From positions 1 through 42,169 of the forward strand of contig JACRFK010000005.1 of assembly GCA_016217925.1 (NCBI GenBank): a DNA stretch of 42,169 bases, written 5' to 3'. A program made the translations under genes and the position numbers. Of the stretch, positions 2,241 to 29,774 are shown one piece after another (the stretch's first letter is position 1; the number at the start of each line of letters is the position of its first letter). The DNA is from Candidatus Kaiserbacteria bacterium (GTDB lineage Bacteria > Patescibacteriota > Minisyncoccia > Phycocordibacterales > UBA2100). The notes under the pieces were generated by a model, which was given only the letters and a program-made list of their open reading frames with translations, did not search any database and had not been told where the DNA came from.

Positions 2241-2248
2241 ACGTATGA

Positions 2249-2355
2249 ATCCCGTTAGAAATTTACTTATGACATCAATACAGGCACAGGGGTTGTCAGG
2301 CTTACTTTCTACCGCATATGCGGAGCAGGATTATTCAGTAAATTTCTAACGGGAT
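2249..2355. mobile_element. MITE-like element (CCCGTTAGA...TCTAACGGG) at rplB start
   Basis: Perfect 19-bp terminal inverted repeats ATCCCGTTAGAAATTTACT / AGTAAATTTCTAACGGGAT; ATGAA duplicated on both sides. Confidence 0.75.
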
Positions 2356-3196
2356 GAAAACATACAAACCCACATCAAAATCGCAGCGGCAGCACACGAG
2401 CATCGAATACCGCAAGCTGCTCTCCGGTCACAAGCCGACGAAGTCGCTTATGAAAGGCGCTCGTAGCTATGCGGGTCGCAACAGTCATGGTCGCATCACG
2501 GTGCGTCATCAGGGCGGAGGGCACAAAAAGAGCTATCGCCAGGTGGATTTCAAGTTCAATAAGAAAAACATCCCCGCCAAGATTACATCCATTGAATACG
2601 ACCCGTTCCGCTCTGGCTTTATCGGGCTTGCCGTGTACAAAGATGGCGAGAAACGCTATGTCGTCCTTCCGCAAAAGGTGAAAGTCGGCGATTCGTTCGT
2701 CGTTTCCGAGACTGCACCCGTTACGCTCGGCAATCGTTTGCCACTCGGGGCCATGCCGGTCGGTACGTTCGTCTACAATATTGAACTGAAACCGGGAGAA
2801 GGTGGCGTCATCGCACGCTCCGCAGGTAATTATTGCGAGATCGTCGCACAAGATGCCGGCTATACGCACATCAAAATGCCTTCGACCGAAGTGCGCCGCG
2901 TCATCTCGACCGCATGGGCGTCCGTCGGCGAAGTTTCCAACGAAGAGCATCATCTCGTCAATCTCGGCAAGGCAGGCCGCAGCCGCTGGCTGGGCCGCCG
3001 TCCAACCGTCCGCGGTACTGCGATGAACCCGGTAGACCATCCGCACGGAGGAGGTGAAGGCAAACAGGGCCGCGGACTGCGCCGCGCCAAGACCATGTGG
3101 GGCAAACCCTCTGGCAAGGGTCAGAAAACGCGCCGCCCGAAGAAATACAGCAACGTTTTCATTGTTAGTCGACGTAAAGTTGGAAAACGTAAGTAG
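2354..3196 (+). CDS. rplB: 50S ribosomal protein L2
   Basis: GRNSHGRITVRHQGGG, IEYDP, RGTAMNPVDHPHGGGEG motifs. Confidence 0.99.
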   Translation: MKTYKPTSKSQRQHTSIEYRKLLSGHKPTKSLMKGARSYAGRNSHGRITVRHQGGGHKKSYRQVDFKFNKKNIPAKITSIEYDPFRSGFIGLAVYKDGEKRYVVLPQKVKVGDSFVVSETAPVTLGNRLPLGAMPVGTFVYNIELKPGEGGVIARSAGNYCEIVAQDAGYTHIKMPSTEVRRVISTAWASVGEVSNEEHHLVNLGKAGRSRWLGRRPTVRGTAMNPVDHPHGGGEGKQGRGLRRAKTMWGKPSGKGQKTRRPKKYSNVFIVSRRKVGKRK

Positions 3197-3205
3197 CAAA
3201 GCCTG

Positions 3206-3237
3206 CCTCGTTAGAACGCGAAGCGTTTCTAATGGGG
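3206..3237. repeat. miniature degenerate CCCGTTAGA-family hairpin
   Basis: CCTCGTTAGA-ACGC-GAA-GCGT-T-TCTAATGGGG; flanked by duplicated rplB 3' end. Confidence 0.6.
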
Positions 3238-3251
3238 TTGGGAAAAGGAAG

Positions 3252-3285
3252 TAGCAAACCGCGGCCCTTAGGCCGCGGTTTGCTA
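3252..3285. terminator. hairpin, probable intrinsic terminator after rplB
   Basis: 15-bp perfect stem TAGCAAACCGCGGCC/GGCCGCGGTTTGCTA. Confidence 0.6.
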
Positions 3286-3295
3286 TGATGTCGGT

Positions 3296-3652
3296 ATGGA
3301 GATTCTCATCGTTCGTGAGCCGGTTCCGGAAGAAACACTGGACGCTCTTGCCGAGGCTTGGCACGGTACGCTGGTGAAGGGCGCCGCGGATATTGAGCGC
3401 GATATTGTGGCCTTGGGTGGTGACTGGCACATGGATGCCAACAACGTTCTTATTGCCGACGGCTCGCAGCAAGAAAATGTATGGGGTTTCAATATCTACC
3501 CGAAAGAGCGTAGCGGCTCCGCTCTTGAATATATTTCCCTCATCAACATCCGCCCGGCGCAAGGCAACAAAGCGATGGAGCTCGCGGACGAGACATTGCG
3601 GGAGAAAATCAAGGAGATAGTTTCGAAATTGGTGCCCCACCTCAATCTATGA
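3296..3652 (+). CDS. DUF5674-like protein
   Basis: DIERDIVALGGDWHMD, GSQQENVWGFNIYP, SLINIRPAQGN match the recognisable DUF5674 pattern. Confidence 0.75.
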   Translation: MEILIVREPVPEETLDALAEAWHGTLVKGAADIERDIVALGGDWHMDANNVLIADGSQQENVWGFNIYPKERSGSALEYISLINIRPAQGNKAMELADETLREKIKEIVSKLVPHLNL

Positions 3653-3918
3653 ACGATGCAAAGTTTTACTTCGCGAATCTCGGTGCTGATGTTACGCGGT
3701 GCGTTTCCGCGCTCCAATCGGGCAATCTCGCTCGGTACGAAGATTCACTCGCACGAGCACGAAAGACGCTCTCACGCCTGCGCGGTGCAAATCGACCGGA
3801 AGCATATGAGGAAGGTTTACTTCTTTTGTCCGGTTTGGAATATGCGCGCCAGAGTAACACGCTTCAATCTTTTGGAATAAACGTAAGCGCATTGAGCGCA
3901 ACGTTCTCGCCTCTATGA
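3649..3918 (+). CDS. small helical hypothetical protein
   Basis: 89-aa ORF with ATGA overlaps to both neighbours. Confidence 0.7.
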   Translation: MNDAKFYFANLGADVTRCVSALQSGNLARYEDSLARARKTLSRLRGANRPEAYEEGLLLLSGLEYARQSNTLQSFGINVSALSATFSPL

Positions 3919-4466
3919 ACGCACACCTCCGGCTCGCTCGAAAAAGCGACCTTGTTGCATACACCGCTCTTCTCCAGCGGACGTGTGAAGTCGCGTTCCC
4001 GAACCCCAAGATAGGCCTAACCAAAGAATGTTTCCCCAAAGAAGTTTTTGCCACTGCTGACACGCAAGCGTATCTTCTAAAGTCGAATCTAACAATAAGT
4101 TCGAATCAAAAAACGTGGCTTGTGGTCGAGAAAAAGAAGCTTATCGGGGCAATCACCACCGAAAAGAAGGGAAAAGTGAGTGACGTAAGGGGTTTTTATG
4201 TTGCACCAGAAAGACAAGGACAAGGTATCGGAAAGATTGTCTGGGAGCGCGCATCGAAGTTTGCAGACGGTCGGCCGGTTACCCTTGAAATCTACGCGCA
4301 CAATAAGAAATCCATTGCTCTCTATAAGAAGCGGGGATTTGTAGTCGACACGACCAAGAGACAGGCATGGTCACACTGGCCGGAATGGCCGAAAGGTGTA
4401 CGTGCGAGAAAATTGTATATGCGGCGCGGACCACAGCGTCCCGGGAAGGTAGGGAAAAAGAAGTAA
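3915..4466 (+). CDS. GNAT family N-acetyltransferase
   Basis: FYVAPERQGQGIG acetyl-CoA motif A and N..SIALYKKRGF motif B. Confidence 0.9.
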   Translation: MNAHLRLARKSDLVAYTALLQRTCEVAFPNPKIGLTKECFPKEVFATADTQAYLLKSNLTISSNQKTWLVVEKKKLIGAITTEKKGKVSDVRGFYVAPERQGQGIGKIVWERASKFADGRPVTLEIYAHNKKSIALYKKRGFVVDTTKRQAWSHWPEWPKGVRARKLYMRRGPQRPGKVGKKK

Positions 4467-4662
4467 AAATCGGGATTTCCAGAACGGAGCATATCCCCAC
4501 GCCGCGGTTTTGTTGTTGGGAAGGGGTGTAAGATAAAGACATTATCTTTAGAGGTCGCGTCACGTCCCGTTTCAGTCGACAATACGGGACACGATTCTGC
4601 GGAATCGAGTACGCGACATGCGAATTAGCAAATTCGAAACTTGGTAATTTTGACAAAATCAC

Positions 4663-7269
4663 ATGCTTAAAAAAATCACGTTCGCAGGTGTCGGCATCGC
4701 ATTACTCGCTTCTCCTCTTCTCGCCTCGGCCGACATGGTCTCCGACCTCCAAGCCCAGATTCAGGCCCTCATGGCGCAGGTCGCTGCTCTGCAAGGACAG
4801 TTGAACCCCGCACCTGCCACTCCCGTCGGCCCGACCGACGACTACGGGACAACTCAGACCACTCCCGCCTGCCCGAATCTTTCCGTCACCATGCAACGCG
4901 GCGCACGCGATGCCACCACAGGCGGACAGGTCATCGACCTCCAGACGTTCCTCGCCGACTACTTCAATTTGCCTGAAGAAGGACTCGTCACCGGGTACTT
5001 CGGGAAAAACACCGAAGCCGCCGTCATCCGCTTCCAGAATCAGTACAGTCTCCCCGCCTTCGGCATCGTCGGCTCGCTTACGCGGGCGAAGATTGCGGGG
5101 GTGTGTGGGGGAGGGGCGGTGCTACAGCCGGGGCCAGTATGTATCGCCGAGGCACTCCGGACAGCATGTCCCACAGGCCAGCATTATGAATCGGCAGGTC
5201 CCGATACCATCGACGCCAACGGATGCCGTCACGACAATCTGAGGTGCGTTCCAGATTCAACCTCCACCGCGACGTTCTCTGCTGCGCCAATGTCGGGCCA
5301 GGCACCGCTCAACGTCACGTTTACGATTGGCGAAGCCAAGCCGGGCGTCACGTACAATTTCAGTTACGGCGACGGCGCGACGGGATCGGCAACGTGCGTG
5401 CAGGACGGCGGCAAAGGCGATCCGAGATGTGGAGCAGCGTGGACGACTGCACATACCTACGCATCAGCTGGCACGTATACCGCGACACTCTCCAAGCAAG
5501 AGTCGTACTCCTGCCCGCCCGGTGCGTACTGTCCAATGCTATACCCGGCTCCAGTCACGGTCGGCACCGTGACGATTACGGTGACCGGCAACCCGACCCA
5601 AACTCTCGTAATTACCGATGTCCAGTATTCACCGGCGCATCCACACGTCAACGATCTCATAACGACGACAGTTACCATCATGAACAAGAGCTCGAGTGAC
5701 CGCACGACAACATTCCAGGTCAACGTGGGGGGTACAACGGTAGATGTTCCATATTTGGCGGCGGTGACCTCAAGAACGGTCATCGTGCCGAACGCCTTCA
5801 CATTCGCGGACCCTGGCCAGAAGACTCTACACACGCACCTGATAAATCCACTGGGTGGCGGGCTTGGTGGCACCATCGACACATATACGAATACACTCAC
5901 GTTCGATGCGGGTAGCAACAGCAGCGGCGTCACCATTACGGCGCCCAACGGCGGCGAGCAGTGGGAGACTGGCATCACCAATACCGTGACGTGGACGCCC
6001 TACCAGTACAATCCGGACATCAATCCTTCGAGAGACGTAACCGCCTTCTTGGAGACCAAGAACTCGGACGGATCGTTCAACATCTTCGGCAGGGTGGAAG
6101 AAAGCGGCAAGGCATCCATTCACTGGGTGACAGGCCAGCTTTATGCGGCATCACAGAGCAACAACTTTATACCGCAAGGTCCGGGCTATTACATTCGCGT
6201 TGTCAACAATGTGACCGGCGCATGGGATCGCTCTGACGCGCCGTTCACCATCTTGCCGCGATCCGTAGACGTAAAAGTCGACGGGTCTGATGGTCCGCTC
6301 ACTATCGACCCGAGTCAGAAGGTGTGGGTGGAATGGACTTCAACCAACAAAACCTCATGCACTTTGTATGGCGTGATGGATAGTCTGACCTCCACACAGA
6401 CGTACATTGGAAACCTGCCGACGAGCGGCAAGCGCGAAGTGTATGTATGGTTCTATGACCCCTCGTCCGGGACTACCATCTCGGCACAGTGCGTTGACGC
6501 GGCAGGGAATGTCGTCACTGATTGGGTCGTAATAAATCCGACGTCTCAACCAGCCGCCATTCGAATCACAAGTCCCAACGGCGGTGAGCAAATATCAATC
6601 GGGAGCGAGTATGTTGTCCGGACTTCCTACTCCGGTGTCTCGGCGGTCTCGGTGGCGCTCTACAAGAACGATCAATGGATGAAGTGGCTCTACAAGGACG
6701 TGCCGGTCTCAAGTTCGCCGCATGATTGGTACTGGACGCCGTCTACTGAAGAAGCGGCCGTAGCGTCACAGGGTAGCGTCTTCAAAATATATGCTACGGG
6801 GCAAAGGACGGACGGCACCGGATACGTCGACGACAAATCCGACGCGCCGTTCTCGTTTAGCGGAATCACAGTAAGTCCTCCGACGTGTTCCATCTCCGGA
6901 ACCCCGGGGAATGAAGTGGTTTCCGGTACGGGCGGCTACAATCTCAGCTGGGTAACAACCAATGCGTCGACGGCGAATCTGACGGGAGGCGCGATGAACC
7001 TCAACACCGGCGTTCCGGTCACGGGCAATCCGTACGGTCAGCCGACACAGATGTGGGTCTCGCAGCCCGGTACCTACACGCTCACCGTCACGGGCACTTA
7101 CGGGCTCGCACCAGGCGGGGGTCTAGTTACCGGAACCTGCAGCACAACGGTCGGTGCCGGGGTGTTGGGCGGAACTGATTCATCGTCAGGTACGAATGCA
7201 TATCTGGCGAGCGCTCTCAGCGCACTTGAATCTGCTCTCAAGGCGTTGATTTCAAAGCTGGGACAATAA
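4663..7269 (+). CDS. large secreted protein with peptidoglycan-binding, PKD and Ig-like domains
   Basis: Signal peptide, coiled coil, PG_binding_1-like LQTFL..TGYFGKNTEAAVIRFQ..GIVGSLTR, PKD (FSYGDG, HTYASAGTY), two T(A/S)PNGGE domains. Confidence 0.85.
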   Translation: MLKKITFAGVGIALLASPLLASADMVSDLQAQIQALMAQVAALQGQLNPAPATPVGPTDDYGTTQTTPACPNLSVTMQRGARDATTGGQVIDLQTFLADYFNLPEEGLVTGYFGKNTEAAVIRFQNQYSLPAFGIVGSLTRAKIAGVCGGGAVLQPGPVCIAEALRTACPTGQHYESAGPDTIDANGCRHDNLRCVPDSTSTATFSAAPMSGQAPLNVTFTIGEAKPGVTYNFSYGDGATGSATCVQDGGKGDPRCGAAWTTAHTYASAGTYTATLSKQESYSCPPGAYCPMLYPAPVTVGTVTITVTGNPTQTLVITDVQYSPAHPHVNDLITTTVTIMNKSSSDRTTTFQVNVGGTTVDVPYLAAVTSRTVIVPNAFTFADPGQKTLHTHLINPLGGGLGGTIDTYTNTLTFDAGSNSSGVTITAPNGGEQWETGITNTVTWTPYQYNPDINPSRDVTAFLETKNSDGSFNIFGRVEESGKASIHWVTGQLYAASQSNNFIPQGPGYYIRVVNNVTGAWDRSDAPFTILPRSVDVKVDGSDGPLTIDPSQKVWVEWTSTNKTSCTLYGVMDSLTSTQTYIGNLPTSGKREVYVWFYDPSSGTTISAQCVDAAGNVVTDWVVINPTSQPAAIRITSPNGGEQISIGSEYVVRTSYSGVSAVSVALYKNDQWMKWLYKDVPVSSSPHDWYWTPSTEEAAVASQGSVFKIYATGQRTDGTGYVDDKSDAPFSFSGITVSPPTCSISGTPGNEVVSGTGGYNLSWVTTNASTANLTGGAMNLNTGVPVTGNPYGQPTQMWVSQPGTYTLTVTGTYGLAPGGGLVTGTCSTTVGAGVLGGTDSSSGTNAYLASALSALESALKALISKLGQ

Positions 7270-7288
7270 CCAGGGGCTCTCTCTTCAG

Positions 7289-7322
7289 CAACAAAAAGCC
7301 CGCTTGTGCGGGCTTTTTGTTG
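7289..7322. terminator. intrinsic terminator
   Basis: CAACAAAAAGCCCGC-TTGT-GCGGGCTTTTTGTTG. Confidence 0.85.
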
Positions 7323-7348
7323 ACATCCCCCCTCATTTCCTATACATT
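7320..7348 (+). promoter_or_regulatory. sigma70 promoter for rpsS block
   Basis: TTGACA (7320-7325), 17 nt, TACATT (7343-7348). Confidence 0.7.
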
Positions 7349-7383
7349 GTGCGAACGCCCGAGAGGCGTTTTTAATTGAAACC

Positions 7384-7734
7384 ATGACACGCTCACTTAA
7401 GAAAGGTCCGTATGTGGACGTCAAATTGATGAAAAAAGTATCTCTGCGCAAAGCCACGCAGGGGACTATCAAGACGTGGGCACGTTCAAGCCAGATAGCA
7501 CCGGAATTTGTGGGCTACACCTTCGCCGTACACACAGGCAAGAATTTTGATGATGTATTCGTGACGGAAGACATGGTAGGTCACCGGTTGGGCGAATTCG
7601 CGCCGACGACCAAATTCATCAAGCACGGCGGTAAGATGCAGAAGGAGACGGAGATGGCCGCCAAGGCCGCGGAAATCGCTGCGGCAACAGCCGCAAAGGC
7701 GACGGCCTCCACGACGGCCGCCGCAAAGAAATAA
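7384..7734 (+). CDS. rpsS: 30S ribosomal protein S19
   Basis: [21 protein letters not shown]; Ala/Lys-rich tail. Confidence 0.98.
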
Positions 7735-7735
7735 T

Positions 7736-8161
7736 ATGAAAGCACTTCTCACCAATTATCACCAGTCACCGCGCAAGGTCCGCCTCGTCGCGGACCTCAT
7801 ACGCGGCAAGTCCGTATCCGCCGCACGCGCAGCGCTTTTGTACTTGCCCAAGAAGTCTTCTCCCGCCATCGGCAAGCTTTTGGACTCTGCTATCGCAAAC
7901 GCGAGTTCGGGCGGTGCCTCCGCGGAGAATCTTTTCGTCAAGACCATTACCGTCAACAAAGGTGCCATGATGCGCCGCGCACGACCGTTCGGCCGCGGAC
8001 GCTCGGGAACACTCCGCAAGACCATGAGCATCGTATTCCTCGAGCTTGGCGTTTCAGCAAAGAAAGCTGCGAAGGCCGCAAAGGTTGCCAAAAAGACGAC
8101 GGCAAAGAAGGCGAAAGCCACAAAACCCGCCTCCGCCAAGGCTTCAGGCGAGGCAAAATAA
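7736..8161 (+). CDS. rplV: 50S ribosomal protein L22
   Basis: SPRKVRLVADLIRG, SAIANA; Lys/Ala tail. Confidence 0.97.
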   Translation: MKALLTNYHQSPRKVRLVADLIRGKSVSAARAALLYLPKKSSPAIGKLLDSAIANASSGGASAENLFVKTITVNKGAMMRRARPFGRGRSGTLRKTMSIVFLELGVSAKKAAKAAKVAKKTTAKKAKATKPASAKASGEAK

Positions 8162-8162
8162 T

Positions 8163-8849
8163 ATGACACATACCGTACATCCATACGCACACCGACTCGG
8201 CATCATCCGCGACTGGAAGTCGCGTTGGTTCTCGAAGTCGCCGGCAAAATACCGGCAGAATGTCTGTGTGGACGCCGCTATCCGCCGTTTCCTCAAGAAG
8301 CGCCTGCGCGGAGCATACGTCACTTCGGTGGAGATTGAGCGCAACGAAAAGTCCGTCCGCGTCATCGTGAAGACCTCTCGGCCGGGATTGGTCATCGGCC
8401 GTGGTGGCGAGGGCTCAACGAAGCTGAGCAAAGAGATCGAGGCCGTTATGCGCACCGTGCCGCACGCGGAGCGCAAAGCCGTCCGTATCGACATCGAAGA
8501 GGTGCGTAGCCCGGAAGCGCAGGCCCCAGTCGTTGCATACATGGTCGCCGAAGGCTTGGAGAAGCGTCAGACGTTCCGCCGGGTACTCAAGCAGACCGTC
8601 GAGAAGGTGATGGCCAATCGCGATGTGCAGGGCGTGCGTATCGCCATCGCCGGACGCCTCGGCGGCGCGGAAATGTCTCGCACCGAAGAGATAAAGCGCG
8701 GCCGCGTACCGCTCCAGACGTTGCGCGCTGATATCGATTTCGCGCGCGAACAAGCGTATCTTCCGTACGGTGTCATCGGCGTCAAGGTATGGATATACCG
8801 CGGCAACATCTTCGCCGACGAAAAGCAATCCGCGAAAAGCGCACAATAA
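8163..8849 (+). CDS. rpsC: 30S ribosomal protein S3
   Basis: HP..RLGI..W.SRW, RPGLVIGRGG, GRLGGAEM, GRVPLQTLRADID. Confidence 0.98.
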   Translation: MTHTVHPYAHRLGIIRDWKSRWFSKSPAKYRQNVCVDAAIRRFLKKRLRGAYVTSVEIERNEKSVRVIVKTSRPGLVIGRGGEGSTKLSKEIEAVMRTVPHAERKAVRIDIEEVRSPEAQAPVVAYMVAEGLEKRQTFRRVLKQTVEKVMANRDVQGVRIAIAGRLGGAEMSRTEEIKRGRVPLQTLRADIDFAREQAYLPYGVIGVKVWIYRGNIFADEKQSAKSAQ

Positions 8850-8852
8850 AAT

Positions 8853-9275
8853 ATGCTCGCACCCAAAAAAGCAAAATATCGCAAGTGGCAATCAGGACGC
8901 CGGGGCACAAAGCGCCTCAATACTCCGGAGACCCGTGGCGTCACGGTGGCTTTCGGCTCGCACGGCCTGAAGGCGCTTACGCAGGCGAGGGTCACTTCCA
9001 ATCAGATAGAAGCCGCGCGCCGCGCACTTACGCGTGCCGGCGGAAAAAGCGCAAAGATATGGATACGTATTTTCCCGGACAGACCGTTCACCAGGAAAGC
9101 CGCGGAAGTGGGCATGGGTAGCGGAAAGGGTGATGTCCAGGGCTATGTATTTGATGTGCGTCCGGGCCGGGTGATTTTTGAAATAGACGGAGCGACGGAT
9201 GCGGTAGCCCGCGAAGCGCTCCGCAAGGCAGGTACGAAATTGCCGCTCAGTGCACGCGTCGTCGTCCGCAATTAA
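8853..9275 (+). CDS. rplP: 50S ribosomal protein L16
   Basis: QIEAARR, IWIRIFPD, MGSGKG. Confidence 0.98.
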   Translation: MLAPKKAKYRKWQSGRRGTKRLNTPETRGVTVAFGSHGLKALTQARVTSNQIEAARRALTRAGGKSAKIWIRIFPDRPFTRKAAEVGMGSGKGDVQGYVFDVRPGRVIFEIDGATDAVAREALRKAGTKLPLSARVVVRN

Positions 9276-9280
9276 CGCAT

Positions 9281-9505
9281 ATGACTGATTTTTCAAAACA
9301 AGAAGTTTCTGAGCTGCAAAAAATCGTCGCGGATAAACGCGAGGCGCTTCGCGCGTTCCGCTTCGGCGGCGCAGGCAGCAGGGCTCGCGACGTGCGCACC
9401 GGCCGTACATTACGCCGGGAAATTGCGCAGATATTGACCGAATTGCGCGCGCGGCAATTGTCCGCACAGAAGACCGCAATTGCGTCTAGGGCCAAGAAAG
9501 CGTAG
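9281..9505 (+). CDS. rpmC: 50S ribosomal protein L29
   Basis: LRAFRF...RREIAQILT; position between rplP and rpsQ. Confidence 0.92.
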   Translation: MTDFSKQEVSELQKIVADKREALRAFRFGGAGSRARDVRTGRTLRREIAQILTELRARQLSAQKTAIASRAKKA

Positions 9506-9524
9506 TATTCGCACTCATATTTGT

Positions 9525-9818
9525 ATGGAACCAGAACTCAAACAAGGAAAAACATTCGAAGGCATCGTCGTAAAATCGGCGATGAAAGACACGGCTACGG
9601 TCCAGGTGGAACGCTACGTAAAGCACCCGAAGTACAAGAAATTCATGCGTCTCTCGAAGAAGTTTTTGGTACACGATGTCGGTAATACTGCGCAGATAGG
9701 GGAGAAAGTGACTATCCGTGAGACTCGTCCCATCTCAAAGCGTAAGCGTTTTGTACTCGTTTCCCGCGACACGCAGGTGTCCGCCGAGGGCGGATCCTCC
9801 TCCGGAGGAAAAGAATAA
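9525..9818 (+). CDS. rpsQ: 30S ribosomal protein S17
   Basis: KHPKYKK, ETRPISKRK; C-terminus carries the 30-nt repeat. Confidence 0.97.
   Translation: MEPELKQGKTFEGIVVKSAMKDTATVQVERYVKHPKYKKFMRLSKKFLVHDVGNTAQIGEKVTIRETRPISKRKRFVLVSRDTQVSAEGGSSSGGKE
9780..9809 (+). repeat. 30-nt twin-hairpin coding repeat (SAEGGSSSGG)
   Basis: TCCGCC-GAG-GGCGGA-TCCTCC-TCC-GGAGGA. Confidence 0.8.
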
Positions 9819-9822
9819 CTAT

Positions 9823-10203
9823 ATGATACAAGACAGAACTCTCGTGAAAATAGCGGACAATTCAGGCGGCATCATCGGCCGTGTCTTCAAGATATTGGGT
9901 GGTTCCAAGAGGCGCTACGCCGGCATCGGTGACGAGATAGTCATTTCGATACAGACAGCGCAGCCACGCAAATCGGTAAAAAAGAAAGAAGTGCACCGTG
10001 CGGTCATCGTACGTCAGCGCAATGCCTTCCGCCGAGCCGACGGTTCGTACGTACGCTTCGACGAGAATGCCGTCGTCCTCATCGCCGGCTCGGGCAAGGA
10101 GCCGAAAGAACCGAAGGCAAATCGCGTATTCGGTCCCATCCCACGCGAAGTCGTCGAACGGGGATATCAGCGCATCGGCTCGCTCGCGCCGGAAATCGTC
10201 TAA
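9823..10203 (+). CDS. rplN: 50S ribosomal protein L14
   Basis: MIQ..T...ADNSG, RFDENAVV, SLAPEIV. Confidence 0.98.
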   Translation: MIQDRTLVKIADNSGGIIGRVFKILGGSKRRYAGIGDEIVISIQTAQPRKSVKKKEVHRAVIVRQRNAFRRADGSYVRFDENAVVLIAGSGKEPKEPKANRVFGPIPREVVERGYQRIGSLAPEIV

Positions 10204-10204
10204 T

Positions 10205-10516
10205 ATGAAATTGAAAAAAGGAGATAAGGTCCTCGTTATTGCGGGGAAGAACAAAGGTCAAAGCGGCGCCATCGTACGTGTCCTCACTGCCGAGAACAAA
10301 GTATTGCTCGACGGTATCAATCTCGTGAAGCGCCACCGCAGGCCGTCGGCCCAGAACCGCAAGGGGCAGATAATCGACAAGCCGATGCCGATACACGCGT
10401 CCAACGTTATGCTCATGGACCCGAAGACAGGCAAGCCGACGCGTATCAAGATTGTCCGCGATGCGGACGGCTCACGCGAGCGCGTAGCGGTTAAGAGCGG
10501 CGAAACACTAAAGTAG
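10205..10516 (+). CDS. rplX: 50S ribosomal protein L24
   Basis: KKGDKVLVIAGKNKG, PIHASNV. Confidence 0.98.
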   Translation: MKLKKGDKVLVIAGKNKGQSGAIVRVLTAENKVLLDGINLVKRHRRPSAQNRKGQIIDKPMPIHASNVMLMDPKTGKPTRIKIVRDADGSRERVAVKSGETLK

Positions 10517-10526
10517 GGTATATCGT

Positions 10527-11066
10527 ATGAATGCAACAAAAACACATAACAAAACATTTGATGCGCTCAAGAGCGAATTGGGCTACACCAATGTCATGCA
10601 GACGCCGAAGATCGCAAAGATTATCGTCTCGACGGGTGTCGGCAAAACCAACAAGGATAAGAAGCGTCTTGAGCTCGTCGTAGACCGCCTCGCGCGCCTG
10701 ACCGGCCAGGCACCCGCAGTGCGCGGGGCCAAGAAGAGCATTGCGAACTTCAAATCACGCATCGGCGATATCGTCGGGTATCAGGTGACACTCCGCGGAG
10801 CGCGCATGCAGTCATTCCTCGACAAGCTCATCCACATCGTCTTGCCGCGCGTAAAGGACTTCCGCGGCATTAAGACCTCCGCCATCGACGAGATGGGCAA
10901 CATCTCCATCGGGTTCAAAGAGCACATCGTTTTCCCCGAAACTTCCGACGAAGACTCAAAAGACATCTTCGGCCTTGCGGTCACCATCGTCACGACAGCG
11001 AAGTCCAAGAAAGAAGCCGAAGCCTACCTCCGCCACCTCGGCCTTCCTCTGCAAGAAAATACATAG
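10527..11066 (+). CDS. rplE: 50S ribosomal protein L5
   Basis: TGQAP, AKKSIANFK, VTLRG, LPRVKDFRG. Confidence 0.98.
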   Translation: MNATKTHNKTFDALKSELGYTNVMQTPKIAKIIVSTGVGKTNKDKKRLELVVDRLARLTGQAPAVRGAKKSIANFKSRIGDIVGYQVTLRGARMQSFLDKLIHIVLPRVKDFRGIKTSAIDEMGNISIGFKEHIVFPETSDEDSKDIFGLAVTIVTTAKSKKEAEAYLRHLGLPLQENT

Positions 11067-11095
11067 TCTACCATTTGCCCGTGCGGCAAAGGGTT

Positions 11096-11135
11096 CATAT
11101 TCCTAAAGTCAGTCTATAGCGAGGAATAGGAATAT
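11096..11135. repeat. hairpin repeat downstream of PaaX-like gene
   Basis: CATATTCCTA...GCGAG...TAGGAATAT; matches 11731-11769. Confidence 0.6.
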
Positions 11136-11148
11136 TTGGCACCTCGCT

Positions 11149-11733
11149 TTATTTTGAGAGGCCAAAGTGTTTTTTAATCCATCCGTCGTTCTCAATCGAC
11201 TCAACGATTGCATATAGAATGTCCTTCCCGATTCTCATGTCCGCCTTGAGAAGCACTATAAGGTCTTCGCAGTCGTAGGGGAATACCCATACACTGTCTT
11301 GAAGTCTCAAGAATCCGCACGCTCGCATCTCGCTGCGTAGGTGGTCTCGATCCTGCCTACGTTGTTGTGGTATGTCGAACATAACCAACCGCCACCGCTT
11401 GTCCCACCGTTTGCCCTGCTGTGCCGCGAGTGCAGCCTTCTGTTCTTCAAGTGCAATTGCCCGTCTGCCCGCCTCGGTAATTTCCATGCGCTTCTTTCCG
11501 TTTTTCTCAACGAAACGTACGTAGCCCTTGATGGCGAGTCGGCTCGCCGCAGTACGGGCTTGGAACGCGAGCTTATACCGCTTCTTCCCCATGATCCCCG
11601 GCAAGGCCGAAAATATATTCGGCGCAAGCATTGCGACGGCGAGCGTCCCGGTAACAGCAACCGTGGCGAGCACGGCTTTCTGTATATTTTCCTTCTTCCG
11701 CCGTTTCCTCGTCTCCTCTTCCATCTTTCCCAT
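11149..11733 (-). CDS. PaaX-like protein (wHTH plus Cas2-like ferredoxin domain)
   Basis: ITEAG wing, WDKRWRLVMFDIP, GFLRLQDSVWVFPY; no CRISPR array or cas1 nearby. Confidence 0.85.
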   Translation of the reverse strand: MGKMEEETRKRRKKENIQKAVLATVAVTGTLAVAMLAPNIFSALPGIMGKKRYKLAFQARTAASRLAIKGYVRFVEKNGKKRMEITEAGRRAIALEEQKAALAAQQGKRWDKRWRLVMFDIPQQRRQDRDHLRSEMRACGFLRLQDSVWVFPYDCEDLIVLLKADMRIGKDILYAIVESIENDGWIKKHFGLSK

Positions 11734-11769
11734 ATTCCTATCTTACACCACCGCGAGAGATAGGAATGT
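11731..11769. repeat. hairpin repeat over promoter/start of PaaX-like gene
   Basis: CATATTCCTATCT...GCGAG-AGATAGGAATGT. Confidence 0.6.
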
Positions 11770-11864
11770 CTGATTATGCACAGACGGCTGGGTTGGGAAT
11801 CAACATACAAGGACAAAAAAGCAGAATCCTTCCTCCGCAACCGCGGCCTCCCGCTCCAAGACAA

Positions 11865-12323
11865 TTAAGGCTCTTTTTGCATAAGCGCTTCTTGGGGTAT
11901 TTCCTGCAAGTTCTTAACTTTGATAGCAGTTTGATTTTCTATCACGGCCTTTGCTAGTCGGTGCATACCATCGATGATACTTCCCTGATAAAGAATGATA
12001 GGGAAAGAGTAATCCGCGATTTGGATTTGGTGGATGTGATGACTGAGACTCGGGTAGCGTGAGGTCGACCGCTCAAATCCTTCTTCTCGAAGGATCTGCA
12101 CAACAAATTCCGGCGTTATCTTTCCAAGTTCATCTGTCCAACAAAAATCTCCCATTTGCGGTAATAGATTACTGATTGCCATTTCTTCCGCGGCTACGTT
12201 CTCAGCCAAGTGTATCAGTCGATACACATCGATGTTCATGCCTCGATGTTCCGCCGAATGAGTATTCCCCGGAACGCTACGTGCAGGTATAATCCGCTGC
12301 TGCGGTCTCAGTTGCTTCTCCAT
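11865..12323 (-). CDS. hypothetical protein with ParB/sulfiredoxin-like motif
   Basis: PIIL...IIDGMHRLAKA motif; TATACT 6 nt upstream of ATG. Confidence 0.65.
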   Translation of the reverse strand: MEKQLRPQQRIIPARSVPGNTHSAEHRGMNIDVYRLIHLAENVAAEEMAISNLLPQMGDFCWTDELGKITPEFVVQILREEGFERSTSRYPSLSHHIHQIQIADYSFPIILYQGSIIDGMHRLAKAVIENQTAIKVKNLQEIPQEALMQKEP

Positions 12324-12344
12324 GCAGCCAGTATAACCTCACCG

Positions 12345-12373
12345 TTGACTTCTAGGGTCATCTCGCGTATATT
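12345..12373 (+). promoter_or_regulatory. sigma70 promoter for rpsN block
   Basis: TTGACT, 17 nt, TATATT. Confidence 0.7.
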
Positions 12374-12535
12374 TCCTCTGCCTCGTAGGGGGCTTTGTTT
12401 TTTAGCCTGATCCCGCCCTTTCTGAATAAAGAGCGGGATATCGTAAGAAACCGAAGCCACGCGAAGCTTTCGTAACCAGGTGCCGCAAGGCGGGGTGCAG
12501 AAGCTTCAAACTCTCCTTACTCGGCGCATATCTCT

Positions 12536-12721
12536 ATGGCAAAGAAATCAATGAAAATAAAGGCGCGACGGACGCCGAAATTCTCAAGCCGCACCGTGCG
12601 ACGCTGCTTCAAGTGCGGTCGCCCGCGCGGGTTTATGCGCGATTTCAATCTGTGCCGCATCTGTTTCCGCGAAGAAGCATTGGAAGGAAATATCCCGGGA
12701 ATCAAAAAATCTTCATGGTAA
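12536..12721 (+). CDS. rpsN: 30S ribosomal protein S14, Zn-binding type Z
   Basis: [27 protein letters not shown]. Confidence 0.98.
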
Positions 12722-13110
12722 ACGATACAATCGGTGACTTCATAGTGCGTCTCACGAATGCCGGTGCCATCAAGAAGGCGTCGGTCTCGATCCCGTACTC
12801 TGCGTTCAAGATGGCCGTCGCGGAAAAGTTGAAAGACATGGGTTACATACAGGACATCGAGAAAAAAGGAAAGAAGGTCAAGAAGACCCTCGACGTTACC
12901 CTCAAGTACGACGGAGCCGGAGAGCATGTCATCCGGGGCGTGAAGCGCGTCTCGAAGCCCGGTCGTCGTCTGTACAAGAGCACGCGCGAAATAATGCCGG
13001 TGCGCTACGGACACGGGGCATTGGTACTTTCGACACCGAAGGGTGTTCTCTCCGATAAGGAAGCACGTAAACAAAATGTTGGCGGCGAGGCCTTGTTCGA
13101 AATTTGGTAA
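12715..13110 (+). CDS. rpsH: 30S ribosomal protein S8
   Basis: [33 protein letters not shown]. Confidence 0.98.
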
Positions 13111-13115
13111 ATAAT

Positions 13116-13664: not shown

Positions 13665-13666
13665 AC

Positions 13667-13790: not shown

Positions 13791-13799
13791 AAAATAAGT

Positions 13800-18762: not shown

Positions 18763-18776
18763 GTTACAATCACGGC

Positions 18777-19310: not shown

Positions 19311-20580
19311 CGTTCTCATCGTTGGTAGCGGGGCGAGGGAACACGCGCTTGCATGGAAAATCGCACAGTCGCCGCGCGTGGGCAAGCTCTACGTGGCTCC
19401 GGGCAATGGCGGGACGGCCGCACTTGCAGAAAATGTGCCCATCGGCGTCATGGAGTTCGAAAAATTGGCGGCTTTCGCCAAAGAAAAGAAAATAGGCCTC
19501 ACGATTCCCGGGCCCGACGACGCGTTCGTCGGCGGCATCGTCGATGTGTTCAAAGCACACAAGTTGCGTGTGTGGGGTCCCACCAAGGAAGCCGCGCAGA
19601 TCGAAGGCTCAAAGGCATTCTCCAAGCAGTTGATGGATGAATCGAAGATACCCACCGCAAAATTCGCCGTATTCACGGCGGCCGCGCCGGCGCTCGCATA
19701 CGTACGTGCGCGCGGTGTCCCCATCGTGATAAAGGCGAGCGGGCTCGCACTGGGAAAGGGGGTATATGTATGTACGACACTTGAGGAAGCGGAGAAGGCT
19801 ATCAACGAGATCATGATAGAGCGCGTACATAAAGATGCCGGAAGTGAGGTCGTCGTCGAAGAGTTTCTTGATGGACCTGAACTCTCTATTCATGCGCTTA
19901 CCGACGGGAGCGCATACGTACTTTTTCCACCGTCGCAAGATCACAAAGCCGCCCTCGACGGGGATGAGGGGAAGAATACCGGCGGCATGGGCACCATCGC
20001 TCCCGTGCCGTGGGCAAAGCCGGAAATAATGGCAAGCATCGACGTCAAAGTCGTTGTACCGACATTCGAAGCGCTGAAAAAACGGGGCGTCCTGTTCCAG
20101 GGCCTCTTGTTTCCCGGCCTTAAATTGACGCTCGATGGTCCCAAGGTGCTCGAATACAACGCCCGTTTCGGCGATCCAGAATGCCAAGTGTATATGCGTT
20201 TGCTCAAGACCGATGTCCTAGACCTTTTTGAGGCTTCCATTGATTGCACTCTGGATGCGGTGCGCCACTCAGTCGAGTGGAATCGTGGATTTGCGGCAAA
20301 CATCGTCATCGCTTCCGGCGGCTATCCCGAAGAGTACAAGACAGGATTTCCCATTACGGGAATCGACGAAGCGCGGAACGTCGAAGGGGTTATCGTATTC
20401 CACGCTGGCACAAGACTAGAAAATGACCAACTCATGACCGCGGGTGGCCGCGTACTCAGCGTCTCCGCAGTCGGCGGCTCGCTCAAAGATGCGCTCGACC
20501 GCGCCTATGAGGCCGTCGGCAAAATCCATTTCGAGGGCCTGCACTTCCGCCGCGACATCGGTCAAAAAAGCCTTGGCTAA
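19300..20580 (+). CDS. purD: phosphoribosylamine--glycine ligase
   Basis: GSGAREHALAW, EGSKAFSK, KASGLALGKGV, QDHK, NTGGMG, EYNARFGDPE, GGRVL. Confidence 0.97.
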   Translation: MAIDVLIVGSGAREHALAWKIAQSPRVGKLYVAPGNGGTAALAENVPIGVMEFEKLAAFAKEKKIGLTIPGPDDAFVGGIVDVFKAHKLRVWGPTKEAAQIEGSKAFSKQLMDESKIPTAKFAVFTAAAPALAYVRARGVPIVIKASGLALGKGVYVCTTLEEAEKAINEIMIERVHKDAGSEVVVEEFLDGPELSIHALTDGSAYVLFPPSQDHKAALDGDEGKNTGGMGTIAPVPWAKPEIMASIDVKVVVPTFEALKKRGVLFQGLLFPGLKLTLDGPKVLEYNARFGDPECQVYMRLLKTDVLDLFEASIDCTLDAVRHSVEWNRGFAANIVIASGGYPEEYKTGFPITGIDEARNVEGVIVFHAGTRLENDQLMTAGGRVLSVSAVGGSLKDALDRAYEAVGKIHFEGLHFRRDIGQKSLG

Positions 20581-28129: not shown

Positions 28130-28132
28130 CTG

Positions 28133-28480
28133 CTAGCCCTGTAGTTTTTTCGTCAGTCGCTCGAACGCTTCGGGGTGGTTCATCGCGAGCGCGGCGAGGG
28201 ATTTGCGGTCCAGCGTGATGTTGGCCTTCTTGAGAGCATCAATGAATCGCGAGTACGAAAAGCCGAGCGGGCGAACCGCTGCGTTGATGCGGAGCGTCCA
28301 GAGGTTGCGGTATTCGCGCTTTTTGCTGCGGCGGTGGCGGAACGCGTGCGCGCCCGCGTGATGAATAGCTTCCTTGGCGACGCGCTCTTTCCTGGAACGG
28401 TCAAAGCGGTAGCCCTTGGTCTGCGCCAATACGTTGCGGCGGCGCTTCAGTTTTGTGACTCCTCGTTTTACTCGTACCAT
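28133..28480 (-). CDS. rplT: 50S ribosomal protein L20
   Basis: MVRVKRG, LWTLRINAA, SYSRFI, LDRKSLA. Confidence 0.98.
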   Translation of the reverse strand: MVRVKRGVTKLKRRRNVLAQTKGYRFDRSRKERVAKEAIHHAGAHAFRHRRSKKREYRNLWTLRINAAVRPLGFSYSRFIDALKKANITLDRKSLAALAMNHPEAFERLTKKLQG

Positions 28481-28525
28481 ATCTTAGATTTGGTTAGTGA
28501 GCGAAGCGAGCTTAGCAAATCTTAG

Positions 28526-28631
28526 ACCCGCCCATCCGCCATCTGGTGAATAACGTACTTGAGGTGTTTCTGACATGGTGATTTTCATATTATGTGTTGA
28601 TTATGTTGTTGCAAGCGGCGGATAGGCGGGT
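28526..28631. mobile_element. inverted-repeat-bounded element between rpmI and rplT
   Basis: ACCCGCCCATCCGCC / GGCGGATAGGCGGGT (14/15 match) around an AT-rich core. Confidence 0.55.
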
Positions 28632-28665
28632 TGTGAAAATTATAGTCGCTTAGCTCCTTAATTTT

Positions 28666-28848
28666 CTACAAAAATCGGCTCTTGGCGGTGTTGTCCATTG
28701 CGGGGTGGAAAGCGACGGCTCGGTTGCGGCGCATCTGGTGCGACCTGCCCTCCTTTGCGTTGAAGTGGTTCTGGCCAGGAGCGCGGGCAATGATCTTGCC
28801 GTGCTTGGTCACGCGGAGGCGCTTTGTGTAGGATTTGTTGGTTTTCAT
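28666..28848 (-). CDS. rpmI: 50S ribosomal protein L35
   Basis: MKTNKSYTKRLRVTKHGKI...HFNAK; between infC and rplT. Confidence 0.93.
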   Translation of the reverse strand: MKTNKSYTKRLRVTKHGKIIARAPGQNHFNAKEGRSHQMRRNRAVAFHPAMDNTAKSRFL

Positions 28849-28983
28849 ATAGAAACCGCGCTTTGCGCGGTCGGACCATTATGCCCGAAAAAGGGGAGAT
28901 TGCAAGCTGAAAGCGGCGGGCAGAATTTTGCCGTCTGCGGGACTTTCGCACAAGGTCCTCGTCGTCAAAATCCCGCCCGCCGC

Positions 28984-29604
28984 TTATTCCGCTTGGGGAG
29001 GAGGGGGTTGCTGAAGAACTGCCTTTTCCTGCCTGGGTTGCTTCTGCTGTTGCGGTTTCTTGGACGGGTCGCGCTCAAGGGTGATGGAGAGCCCTTTAGG
29101 GCCCTTTTGGATAGGTTCGGCGACCTTGAAACCCTCCGGAATGACCGCAAGGAATCGTTCGAGGCGCTCTTTGAGGAACTCGAATTCCATGTATTTGTAG
29201 CGTCCCCACAAAAAGAGGTCCACCTTTACGCGGTGGCCTTCTTTGAGCCACTCGGCGGCCTTGCCGGCCTTGATTTGCATGTCGCGCTCCGAGGTGCCGA
29301 TCTTCACCTGCGTTATCTTGGTCTCCGTCACATGCGCTTTGGATTTTATCTCCTTGTCTTTTTTCTTTTGCTCGTATTTGAATTTACCGTAGTCGGTAAT
29401 TTTGCACACTGGCGGCTGCGCGTTGGGTGATACTTCGATGAGGTCGAGTCCGAGCTCAGCCGCCTTTGCGAGTGCCTCGCGGATAGGAAGGACGCCGAAA
29501 TTCTCGGCATTGGGGCCGATGACGCGCACTTCAGGGGCCCTGATGCCCTCATTCATGCGCGCGCGCTCTTTTTCAGCCTGCGATGTGTATTTGGTGAATC
29601 CCAT
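28984..29604 (-). CDS. infC: translation initiation factor IF-3
   Basis: NEGIRAPEVRVI, LDLIEVSPNAQPPVCKITDYGKFKYE, GHRVKV. Confidence 0.97.
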   Translation of the reverse strand: MGFTKYTSQAEKERARMNEGIRAPEVRVIGPNAENFGVLPIREALAKAAELGLDLIEVSPNAQPPVCKITDYGKFKYEQKKKDKEIKSKAHVTETKITQVKIGTSERDMQIKAGKAAEWLKEGHRVKVDLFLWGRYKYMEFEFLKERLERFLAVIPEGFKVAEPIQKGPKGLSITLERDPSKKPQQQKQPRQEKAVLQQPPPPQAE

Positions 29605-29722
29605 CCCGTTAGAGGCAGGAAGCTTGCGCTTCCGCGGCGAATTTTGATGTTGTTACAAATTTCATTTTTTAAATGACGTCACCGTATGGTACCACGACGA
29701 ACTTCCGTAGCCTCTAACGGGA
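29604..29722. mobile_element. MITE-like element (CCCGTTAGA...TCTAACGGG) at infC start
   Basis: 13-bp TIR TCCCGTTAGAGGC / GCCTCTAACGGGA; CCCAT (ATGGG on minus) duplicated at 29600-29604 and 29723-29727. Confidence 0.75.
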
Positions 29723-29774
29723 CCCATTTGGTCCGCGCATTATGGCATTTCCGGCTTGATGTTTCAACCGCGTC

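Follow-up and report, generated by a model that had tools for sequence, protein, structure and literature searches.

Correia/NEMIS, ERIC, and RUP are MITEs (miniature inverted-repeat transposable elements), that is, short noncoding sequences with inverted ends and a target duplication, which occur in many copies, are cotranscribed with their neighbors, and derive from a coding partner. The free-standing GIY-YIG homing genes of phages encode multidomain proteins of 200-plus amino acids (aa), carry their own expression signals, and spread to one cognate site by repair. According to the main text of Chenal et al. (Nat Commun 2025, PMC11893778), Ssn of Neisseria is a 94-aa single-domain GIY-YIG protein that binds the NTS hairpin as single-stranded DNA (ssDNA) and cuts upstream of it, and its gene is flanked by NTS copies. 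The same text reports that Ssn also acts on a hairpin split over two oligonucleotides, and its authors equate the architecture with that of an insertion sequence and suggest domestication (PMC11893778). Here, we analyzed a 42,169-nucleotide (nt) stretch of DNA from Candidatus Kaiserbacteria bacterium (GenBank assembly GCA_016217925.1, contig JACRFK010000005.1; hereafter, the window), in which an initial annotation made from the sequence alone had proposed that three short inserts belong to a family of MITEs. We consider it quite probable that these inserts are copies of a very compact selfish mobile family of Patescibacteria (the candidate phyla radiation [CPR]) with a GIY-YIG nuclease unit that lands on host start codons.

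The three inserts lie where the initial annotation had placed them, each at the start of a gene whose identity (ribosomal protein L2, (d)CMP kinase, or initiation factor IF-3) was confirmed with Pfam and NCBIfam. Their terminal cores, CCCGTTAGA and TCTAACGGG, are at 2251-2259/2345-2353, 16607-16615/16710-16718, and 29605-29613/29713-29721, and the six exact 9-mers in the window all fall within these elements. Read on the coding strand, each element runs in the order ATGNN, T, CCCGTTAGA, its own stem bases, an interior that varies, the bases that pair with that stem, TCTAACGGG, A, TGNN, and the gene. Element-specific complementary bases lengthen the terminal stem, as had been described, to 17, 14, and 12 bp for elements 1, 2, and 3, respectively. 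The reported upstream repeats of the first coding bases (ATGAA, ATGAA, and ATGGG) and the TAA-CGGG-ATG sequence are both present. RNA folds of the three regions were dominated by the terminal stem (z = -5.6, -3.3, and -4.7; 200 shuffles each). In all three, the long predicted stem takes in the A and U of the downstream AUG, which agrees with the suggestion that the initiation region sits within a strong stem. The features of the three sites are as follows, with positions numbered along the window.

2250 to 2354, plus strand: element 1, at the rplB start codon; 105 nt with the terminal T..A counted in, and a 17-bp stem
2246 to 2249, plus strand: left TGAA copy of element 1, which with A2245 forms the retained upstream ATG
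2355 to 2358, plus strand: right TGAA copy of element 1; A2354, the element's last base, completes the rebuilt rplB ATG at 2354-2356
2245 to 2349, plus strand: leader open reading frame (ORF) of element 1, from the upstream ATG, 34 codons, with its TAA inside TCTAACGGG, 4 nt before the rplB ATG; class "direct"
2354 to 3196, plus strand: rplB, ribosomal protein L2, 280 aa (Ribosomal_L2_N, Ribosomal_L2_C)
16606 to 16719, plus strand: element 2, 114 nt including T..A, at the start codon of the (d)CMP kinase gene directly after secY; sub-family B (5' ..GCGGAC, 3' GTCCGCGTCC..), with a 14-bp stem and an inner helix
16602 to 16605, plus strand: left TGAA copy of element 2; upstream ATG at 16601-16603
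16720 to 16723, plus strand: right TGAA copy of element 2; A16719 comes from the element
16601 to 16714, plus strand: leader ORF of element 2, 37 codons, ending at the terminal TAA at 16712-16714; class "direct"
16719 to 17282, plus strand: (d)CMP kinase gene (cmk), 187 aa (Cytidylate_kin2 above cutoff; TIGR02173 at 96.7 bits, just under its cutoff of 102.1)
29604 to 29722, minus strand: element 3, 119 nt including T..A, at the infC start codon; sub-family A (5' ..ACGGAAGTT, 3' GGAAGC-GCAA-GCTTCC hairpin), with a 12-bp stem
29723 to 29726, minus strand: upstream TGGG copy of element 3 (left on the coding strand); retained ATG at 29725-29727
29600 to 29603, minus strand: downstream TGGG copy of element 3; A29604 from the element forms the infC ATG at 29602-29604
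29662 to 29727, minus strand: leader ORF 1 of element 3, 21 codons plus TGA, from the retained ATG
29609 to 29665, minus strand: leader ORF 2 of element 3, 18 codons plus TAA, its ATG overlapping the ORF 1 stop (ATGA) and its end lying 4 nt before the infC ATG; class "relay," with one hop
28984 to 29604, minus strand: infC, IF-3, 206 aa (IF3_N, IF3_C)

To place these inserts in their genome (G000; 980,822 bases in 17 contigs, 54.6% G+C, with the window as contig C3), we searched it for CCCGTTAGA-N10-300-TCTAACGGG. There were 41 matches compared to none for a reversed control pattern, and each 9-mer was present 50 times; these control counts rule out chance or a generic terminator hairpin. We then analyzed 42 copies, defined as non-nested core pairs with a spacing below 320 nt. 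In all 42, the two bases that flank the cores on the outside are complementary to each other (C..G in 28 and T..A in 14), stem positions 10 to 12 are paired in 40 of the 42, from seven different triplets, and an exact 4-nt direct repeat, most often TGAA, lies outside the flank base in 32. The element unit is YCCCGTTAGA...TCTAACGGGR plus a 4-nt duplication, with inverted ends that are perfect over 10 to 17 bp. On the coding strand, the general anatomy is [A/T]TGNN, Y, CCCGTTAGA-RRN ... N'YY-TCTAACGGG, R, TGNN, gene. The rebuilt start codon takes its first base, always a purine (A or G), from the end of the element, such that C..G elements rebuild a GTG start and T..A elements rebuild ATG, with GTG no less common than ATG as the downstream start. 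The five-base repeats noted in the window exist because a T..A element places an A before the right-hand TGNN, but the duplicated unit is not ATGNN; it is TGNN (4 nt), joined to a base that the element supplies. A strict form of the pattern, ATGNNY-core..core-RTG, matched 28 times in G000 and was found in 19 of 41 genomes, including five other families of the order, with no match for the control. Tandem and nested copies were also recovered, in which an element occupies either the rebuilt start codon of an older insertion or an internal ATGAA of another element (loci L071, L072, L101, and L143; G000 C3:63104-63225). The genome-wide search for motif pairs thus turned up both the start-codon adjacency and the duplication that had been predicted, and the 42 pairs bear out a nonautonomous, MITE-like family with inverted ends and a target duplication.

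Mobility of the family had also been expected to leave presence/absence polymorphism among relatives, and this was seen at rplB, cmk, and infC. The element was absent at rplW-rplB in all eight relatives' loci compared; in G010 (L012), for example, the junction reads ...ttctaatact ATGAAAAC, with a single ATGAA. At secY-cmk, six relatives' loci are empty and consist of the secY stop, 3 to 4 nt, and a single ATGAA or ATGAC, while in the remaining seven secY loci another gene follows secY. At infC, 11 relatives' loci are empty, with a single ATGGG behind a TATAGT-like box, and the site is occupied at the same ATGGG by a homologous element in three genomes (G041, G045, and G056), of which G041 also has the two-ORF leader relay. 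Identity of infC is 71 to 77% for these three genomes, compared to 82 to 87% for several empty relatives. Since the occupied genomes are not the closest by infC, either an old insertion was followed by several precise losses or the site was hit repeatedly. We also observed that one of the eight rplB loci, that of G020 (L013), carries a different, palindromic insert of approximately 170 nt between rplW and rplB, with its own inverted ends, cctcccacattttcc ... ggaaaatgtgggagg, right after ATGAG.

The initial annotation had found no transposase in the window. This holds in that no nuclease gene is present there, but the genome does contain a GIY-YIG copy with the same ends. Searching G000 with PF01541 gave a match (57 bits) inside a 275-nt copy on contig C8 with family ends. 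Its ORF begins at the left ATG (MIPVRDKESFYTYILRS...GFLSLTG), encodes 94 aa with one GIY-YIG domain (PF01541, residues 10 to 74), and stops at a TGA that overlaps the rebuilt host ATG. Among seven full-length copies (G000 and six from relatives, two of these in other families of the order), the ORF runs from the left ATG in all seven and stops at position +1 of the host ATG in six, and the seven copies precede seven different host genes. A scan of relatives with one genome per species returned more than 599 stretches and at least 500 confirmed relatives, of which we analyzed the best 80. Both ends (two mismatches or fewer) bracket the gene in 77 of these 80, mostly with a length of 275 or 278 nt. 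Within the 77, a complementary flank base was found in 75, an exact 4-nt duplication in 48, and an ATG at -6 to -4 in 47; copies that lack the flanking ATG mostly have an internal ATG 12 to 25 nt in, as well as other duplications, such as TTTA. To judge by their titles, the relatives are mostly Patescibacteria from many candidate groups, with some Omnitrophota and other metagenome-assembled genomes (MAGs) besides. Two copies in one MAG are 95% identical and have unrelated flanks.

Across these copies, the full-length unit measures 272 to 283 bp, most often 275, and the protein has 92 to 95 aa, a single domain, and an M-x-P-V-R-D... start. For 27 ungapped 94-codon ORFs, pN was 0.25 and pS was 0.78, with pN smaller than pS in 349 of 351 pairs and a dN/dS of 0.12 in the 124 pairs where dS was finite. 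That pN lies far under pS indicates that the nuclease protein is under purifying selection. The commonest form of the unit is without a promoter, start, or stop of its own, and takes its ATG from the left target copy and its TGA from the right one. Among solved structures, the protein's profile best matched UPF0213 proteins and SLX1; the NCBIfam family of group I intron endonucleases gave a weak score of 17.8 bits, far below cutoff, which is a resemblance at the level of the domain only. It is also 37 to 40% identical to two GIY-YIG ORFs that lie beside exact NTS matches in metagenome loci. By identity and profile, the nuclease is probably related to UPF0213/SLX1 and to Ssn-type proteins, the latter forming the CDD clade cd10448. 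Only one distant relative (45% identity) was present in a collection of viral contigs, and carriage by phages was set aside on that account; carriage by plasmids was rejected as well, since none of the five records found there, B. subtilis yazA among them, reached 60% identity. A further two small GIY-YIG genes in G000, at C1:264884-265330 (L006) and C6:39164-39480 (L009), have no inverted ends and run into tRNA-Glu and tRNA-Ser, respectively. The last codons of the L006 gene (..ALSSNG) are encoded by the 5' part of the tRNA-Glu, CCTATCGTCTAACGG, which resembles the right end of the element, CCTATCTCTAACGGG.

Judged against the main text on Ssn, the unit described here likewise encodes a 94-aa single-domain GIY-YIG protein whose gene is bracketed by inverted, hairpin-forming, multicopy repeats (PMC11893778). 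In contrast to Ssn, there is one hairpin, split into halves that form the two element ends and are themselves part of the coding sequence; the ORF lacks both a start and a stop; a target duplication of 4 to 5 nt is accompanied by empty sites; copies sit on start codons and promoter edges; and the repeat sequence differs (PMC11893778). The published degenerate SRM motif (PMC11893778) matched twice in G000, compared to 8 to 12 matches in shuffles, and never on an element. The main text of that paper contains no wording on start codons, MITEs, or Patescibacteria, and mobility is not demonstrated there (PMC11893778). In the accessible part of a preprint (10.64898/2026.09.22.753630), SsnA loci serve only as a benchmark. 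As an observation of its own, exact NTS motifs of the Neisseria type were widespread in environmental metagenome contigs, often as inverted pairs 11 to 133 nt apart, like the split hairpins here (L226, L232, L233, L235, L244, L272, L298, and L300).

Other known systems share some of these features. The family resembles Correia/NEMIS, ERIC, and RUP in the MITE features listed above; it differs in that its partner is a GIY-YIG nuclease rather than a DDE transposase, its interiors are nearly unconstrained while its ends are near-perfect, and it inserts in register with start codons, such that the element end rebuilds the codon. Like the phage homing genes, it is a selfish gene wedged between host genes with a GIY-YIG nuclease as its only product, but it has inverted ends and a duplication, a single domain, and many unrelated host genes. 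MIRU of mycobacteria are operon repeats with small ORFs that overlap the stop and start codons of their neighbors and keep translational coupling; unlike the family here, they are minisatellite units in tandem array and have neither inverted ends nor a nuclease partner. Rickettsia palindromic elements, repeats of 100 to 150 bp, survive in frame in protein-coding genes, and we know of no coding partner for them. In this in-frame survival, they resemble mini-hairpins of 27 to 30 nt that we found in genes for UvrB and for DnaE-like, DHH, and formyltransferase proteins. REP/REPIN-RAYT and IS200/IS605 systems are alike in being very small and in having hairpin repeats that are read as ssDNA by a small nuclease-type enzyme (PMC11893778, main text). 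Those systems differ in using HUH/Y1 enzymes with covalent intermediates and in having neither ends that pair across the element nor a target duplication (in part from PMC11893778).

Start codons are the main insertion site, as the initial annotation had maintained. There are 29 elements in G000 with [A/T]TG at -6 to -4 and RTG on the right, and 24 of these 29 are on an ATG followed by 90 or more open codons and preceded by no more than 40, a context that applies to only 2,552 of all 29,920 ATGs in the genome (8.5%). Pfam families were found in 17 of 20 downstream host proteins scanned. Profile starts align to residues 1 to 9 in several hosts (residue to profile position: AdoHcyase, 2 to 1; S4, 1 to 1; SMC_N, 5 to 2; RecO_N, 4 to 3; Pep_deformylase, 8 to 7), which implies that the rebuilt RTG is the true N terminus. 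The hosts are housekeeping genes, among them those for AdoHcy hydrolase, SMC, deformylase, the DNA polymerase III clamp loader, FtsK, RecO, and glutamate dehydrogenase.

Not every copy is on a start codon. At four copies in G000 (C1:36590, C1:113513, C1:145233, and C2:1489), TTGA is duplicated and GTTGAC is restored 17 nt upstream of a TAnnnT box, before a gene or small frame; this position is the 5' edge of a -35 hexamer. Two others (C2:24434-24510 and C3:58408-58485) lie immediately before TGATATGAT or TGATATAAT, which are extended -10 boxes. In G027, which belongs to another family of the order, 17 elements were fetched, and most are at TTGAC or TGATATAAT-like boxes: the former in loci L206, L209, L210, L213, L215, and L222, with TTGA duplicated and GTTGAC restored about 17 nt before a TAnnnT box, the latter in L208, L212, and L217, where the duplication is 5 nt (TGATA). 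G000 further contains nine mini-hairpins of 27 to 31 nt. Four are in frame in long ORFs, at C1:157663-157689 (L172, UvrB_inter), C1:307687-307713 (L171, HHH_6 as in DnaE), C2:183467-183496 (L173, DHH), and C8:10752-10781 (L174, Formyl_trans_N). Exactly 11 codons, PVRG(I/D)ASNGAG, are absent from four relatives at the UvrB_inter ORF and from three at the HHH_6 ORF, and these 11 codons equal 27 + 2 + 4 nt. Insertion is thus not confined to start codons, and the surviving positions are either the 5' edge of a signal or in frame. The label "start-codon-targeting" consequently stands for the main site but not for the -35 edges, extended -10 edges, and in-frame positions, and start codons may be actively targeted or may merely be where copies survive selection.

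A mini-hairpin of the same family is also present in the window. Two RNA genes were the only matches that Rfam returned there at gathering score; no Rfam family was found on any element.

3207 to 3236, no strand assigned: mini-hairpin, 30 nt, in the spacer downstream of rplB; cores degenerate (CTCGTTAGA..TCTAATGGG), loop GCGAAGC
33007 to 33394, minus strand: tmRNA gene (Rfam gathering match)
41307 to 41377, plus strand: tRNA gene (Rfam gathering match)

Past the rplB stop (window 3190-3290), a 10-nt direct repeat, AAGTAGCAAA (3190-3199 and 3249-3258), flanks the mini-hairpin, and another, unrelated GC-rich hairpin lies at about 3252-3283, before ATGATG.

We classified the leader frames of the 29 start-codon elements from the left ATG onward. 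Thirteen meet no stop until a few bases from the host start ("direct"), and five continue in frame into the host gene ("fusion"). This gives uninterrupted delivery in 18 of 29, compared to 8.2 expected from shuffled interiors. A single overlapping restart brings another seven to the host start, and four are "lost," compared to 12.2 expected. At the right end, one frame meets a TAA stop and another leads to a fusion; the third has a stop when the target is TGAN. Element lengths are spread over the three reading frames, and an in-frame N-terminal extension as the rule was therefore rejected. The excess of open leader frames fits stop-restart coupling and so lends support to the "stop followed by a restart" that the initial annotation had read from the right end. 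Shine-Dalgarno (SD)-like motifs are upstream in only 1 of the 29 elements, and genome-wide (GGAG/GAGG/AGGA at -16 to -5) they precede 9% of the first ATGs of long ORFs versus 9% of random positions. With SD-like motifs not enriched, it is plausible that the host gene is fed by restart or by leaderless initiation. We observed that TAnnnT boxes lie 5 to 10 nt upstream of 23% of 1,217 first ATGs of long open frames, versus 5%, in a crude background that includes spurious frames. Together, the SD and TAnnnT patterns hint at widespread leaderless or SD-independent initiation in G000.

Alignment of 23 elements of 108 to 130 nt resolved three sub-families that have only the outer 9 to 12 nt in common, each with its own inner inverted segment (GGAAG, GGAC-GCG, and GGTC-GCG), and the subterminal sequence of sub-family A matches the 275-nt coding copy. 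The interiors of the three window elements had been called unrelated; this is correct for the copy at 2251, which has no relative above the shuffled control, but not for those at 16607 and 29605, which belong to sub-families with conserved subterminal segments. Capture of the interior from the host genome was rejected, as blastn-short matched only subterminal parts of family members. The copies of 57 to 120 nt, the three window elements among them, are MITE-like derivatives by internal deletion and keep the ends and 10 to 25 nt of subterminal sequence. Of the features by which MITEs are recognized, they have the inverted ends, the target duplication, presence/absence at orthologous sites, and a coding partner with the same ends; near-identical copies from a burst were not seen, the interiors being barely above shuffled identity. 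Few copies have degenerate ends, some of which are compensated on both sides (e.g., CCCGTGAGA..TCTCACGGG).

We propose that these observations reflect a mobile element, which is found inserted with a duplication of 4 nt (in some cases 5 nt) whose first base is the T of a host ATG. The nuclease ORF would be driven by the host promoter and the left start-codon copy; it ends at the duplicated TGA past the right end, and the host ATG or GTG is rebuilt, in an ATGA overlap, from the element's last base (A or G) and the duplicated TG. Ribosomes starting at the old ATG would pass along a short leader to a UAA-CGGG-AUG stop, a RUGA overlap, or an in-frame fusion, and the host gene would probably be fed by translational restart rather than by RNA processing. 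The elements are presumably moved by the GIY-YIG protein, which, by analogy with Ssn, may recognize the hairpin formed by the two ends in ssDNA and cut just upstream on each strand; an Ssn-type cut a few bases outside the paired ends, on each strand, fits the 4- to 5-nt duplication. Anatomy, copy number, duplication, empty sites, the coding partner and its purifying selection, the excess of open leaders, and the differing host genes are what the sequences show. A bolder version of this proposal is possible, though we hold it with considerable doubt. In it, the 275-bp unit would be an autonomous transposon, among the smallest known and the first with a GIY-YIG (Ssn-like), hairpin-guided ssDNA nuclease as its sole enzyme, and would be pure coding sequence expressed only through the ATGA of host starts. 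Its sites (5' edges of -35 hexamers, extended -10 boxes, and leaderless starts) would perhaps be chosen through DNA that RNA polymerase has distorted or opened, and the stem would perhaps act in mRNA, by handing on ribosomes or regenerating a 5'-terminal RUG.

Several results weigh against a selfish mobile family with start-codon insertion. An exact duplication is absent in 10 of the 42 copies in G000, and the duplication is sometimes 5 nt, at TGATA and TGAAA sites in G027. G016 has 32 copies, yet no full-length copy was seen in this genome, which is 81% complete. We know of no strand-joining activity for GIY-YIG nucleases. Contigs of three groundwater-study DNA runs, one of which may be where the window comes from, were compared to window positions 1 to 20000; the joints found (2264>2342 and 16625>16696) have other letters between them and are other copies that share the ends. 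No contig joins 2249 to 2354 or 16605 to 16719, but contigs drop rare variants and are thus uninformative on excision. Start-codon targeting may in part be survivorship, although with about 1,000 starts against tens of thousands of tolerable noncoding positions, survival alone is unlikely, on this rough estimate, to give 30 of 42 copies at starts. Finally, conservation is unevenly distributed. Nearest-neighbor identity of interiors is 0.53 to 0.83 versus 0.55 to 0.69 when shuffled (copies within G000), while the ends are near-perfect, with 44 perfect pairs versus about 8 to 10 copies with one mismatch. At infC, the ends and the subterminal 30 nt are invariant or compensated (GGC/GCC, GGT/ACC, and AGT/ACT), and third codon positions of infC itself are only 41 to 55% identical. 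Such conservation of the ends exceeds what is expected of a decaying transposon and suggests a continuing function of the stem, in the host or in the element, which could be either repeated mobilization or a role in host mRNA.

A host role of this kind is the core of the alternative that survives best, although we regard it as unlikely. The initial annotation had itself named a domesticated translational control module as an alternative, and for the conserved stem this may hold. Here, the hairpin would be a domesticated module that the host retains, the elements would be old and fixed with their stems under selection, and the GIY-YIG protein would be an Ssn-like hairpin nuclease serving the cell, either by restricting incoming ssDNA, as proposed for Neisseria, or by cutting the stem at its 3' base in RNA to yield a leaderless mRNA with a 5' AUG or GUG. 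The compensated ends at infC, the stems fully paired in 40 of 42 copies with seven triplet types, and the invariable purine given to the start codon all speak for it. So does the TAnnnT hexamer 5 to 10 nt before the ATG in 16 of 29 upstream flanks, which, with SD-like motifs not enriched, makes many hosts look leaderless or nearly so. Domestication of NTS-ssnA-NTS is moreover the proposal of the Ssn authors themselves (PMC11893778, main text). Yet fixed modules are hard to reconcile with the cleanly empty state of each of the three window sites in the closest relatives, with host genes that differ between genomes, with 95%-identical paralogous copies in unrelated flanks, and with tandem and nested insertions. 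RNA cutting would make the excess of open leaders unnecessary, and SsnA is inactive on RNA according to the main text of PMC11893778. A leaderless mRNA is also at odds with rplB and cmk, which are internal operon genes without an obvious promoter.

Spread by homing, in which a break at the target is repaired by copying from a donor instead of by cut-and-paste or peel-and-paste transposition, is less probable again. Classic homing endonucleases do include GIY-YIG enzymes, but homing wants long flanking homology, whereas the flanks here are unrelated and have only 4 to 5 nt in common. The protein, at one 78-position domain, has no DNA-binding module, and a target duplication with inverted ends is characteristic of transposons. 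We think it very improbable that the short elements are REP/REPIN-like repeats moved by a Y1/RAYT-like or IS110-family transposase with the GIY-YIG ORF as a passenger. G000 does carry four Y1_Tnp genes (226 to 232 aa) and one IS110-family gene, but no motif-like sequence (one mismatch or fewer) occurs within 1.5 kb of any of the four Y1_Tnp genes, each of which has its own palindrome. A passenger would also not be expected to fill the space between the ends in 77 of the best 80 loci, in many lineages and under purifying selection. A profile search of G000 gave no match to DDE_Tnp_1 or rve, and RAYT/REPIN, DDE, and IS110 enzymes were ruled out as the mobilizing activity, with the Y1 genes unlinked to the motif and no DDE match. 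The Y1_Tnp (IS200/RAYT-like) genes themselves, at C6:63911, C1:27357, C6:88385, and C1:296038, are each bracketed by their own palindrome or direct repeat.

The least probable reading, removal or skipping of the insert by intron-like excision or by ribosome hopping, draws on ends that pair and loop out the insert between two start-codon copies, but it meets elements with no Rfam family at gathering score, unconstrained interiors of varied length with no ribozyme-sized conserved core, and lengths in all three frames whose leaders are nevertheless kept open above chance, as in ordinary translation. An intron or ribozyme was rejected for want of an Rfam match. Bypass of the T4 gene 60 type uses matched take-off and landing sense codons and a stop after take-off; it was rejected as only the start codon is repeated here, the second codons differ in the third base, and the leaders are open. 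Integron attC sites are defined by RYYYAAC ... GTTRRRY core sites at cassette boundaries, and the reversed core order here, GTTAGA ... TCTAAC, on which alone the comparison was judged, rejects them as well.

The initial annotation had considered the family undescribed. In the open-access literature, a scope that leaves out subscription journals and the supplementary homolog lists and SRM counts of PMC11893778, we found no account of the motif, of start-codon insertion of GIY-YIG elements, or of such elements in Patescibacteria. Small GIY-YIG nucleases with multicopy hairpin repeats, however, were published in 2025 as Ssn/NTS (PMC11893778). Several features described here are therefore not in print within that literature, but the kind itself is known from the Ssn paper. 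What the family adds is the first genomic evidence we have found that an Ssn-like GIY-YIG gene with hairpin repeats acts as a mobile element, which in the main text of the 2025 paper is only a hypothesis; the evidence for this lies in the target duplication, the clean empty sites, the differing host genes, and the near-identical paralogous copies. The elements represent an extreme form of genetic parasitism, in which promoter, start, and stop are borrowed from the host and repaid with a rebuilt start codon and the handing on of ribosomes. About 3% of the genes in streamlined CPR genomes carry such an insert (about 30 starts in 0.98 Mb), which bears on start calling, spurious small ORFs, and N-terminal extensions in annotation, and on translation initiation in organisms without an SD signal. 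The family can also serve as a testable model of how hairpin-guided cleavage of ssDNA is coupled to insertion, and it provides a natural set of paired nuclease and hairpin specificities.

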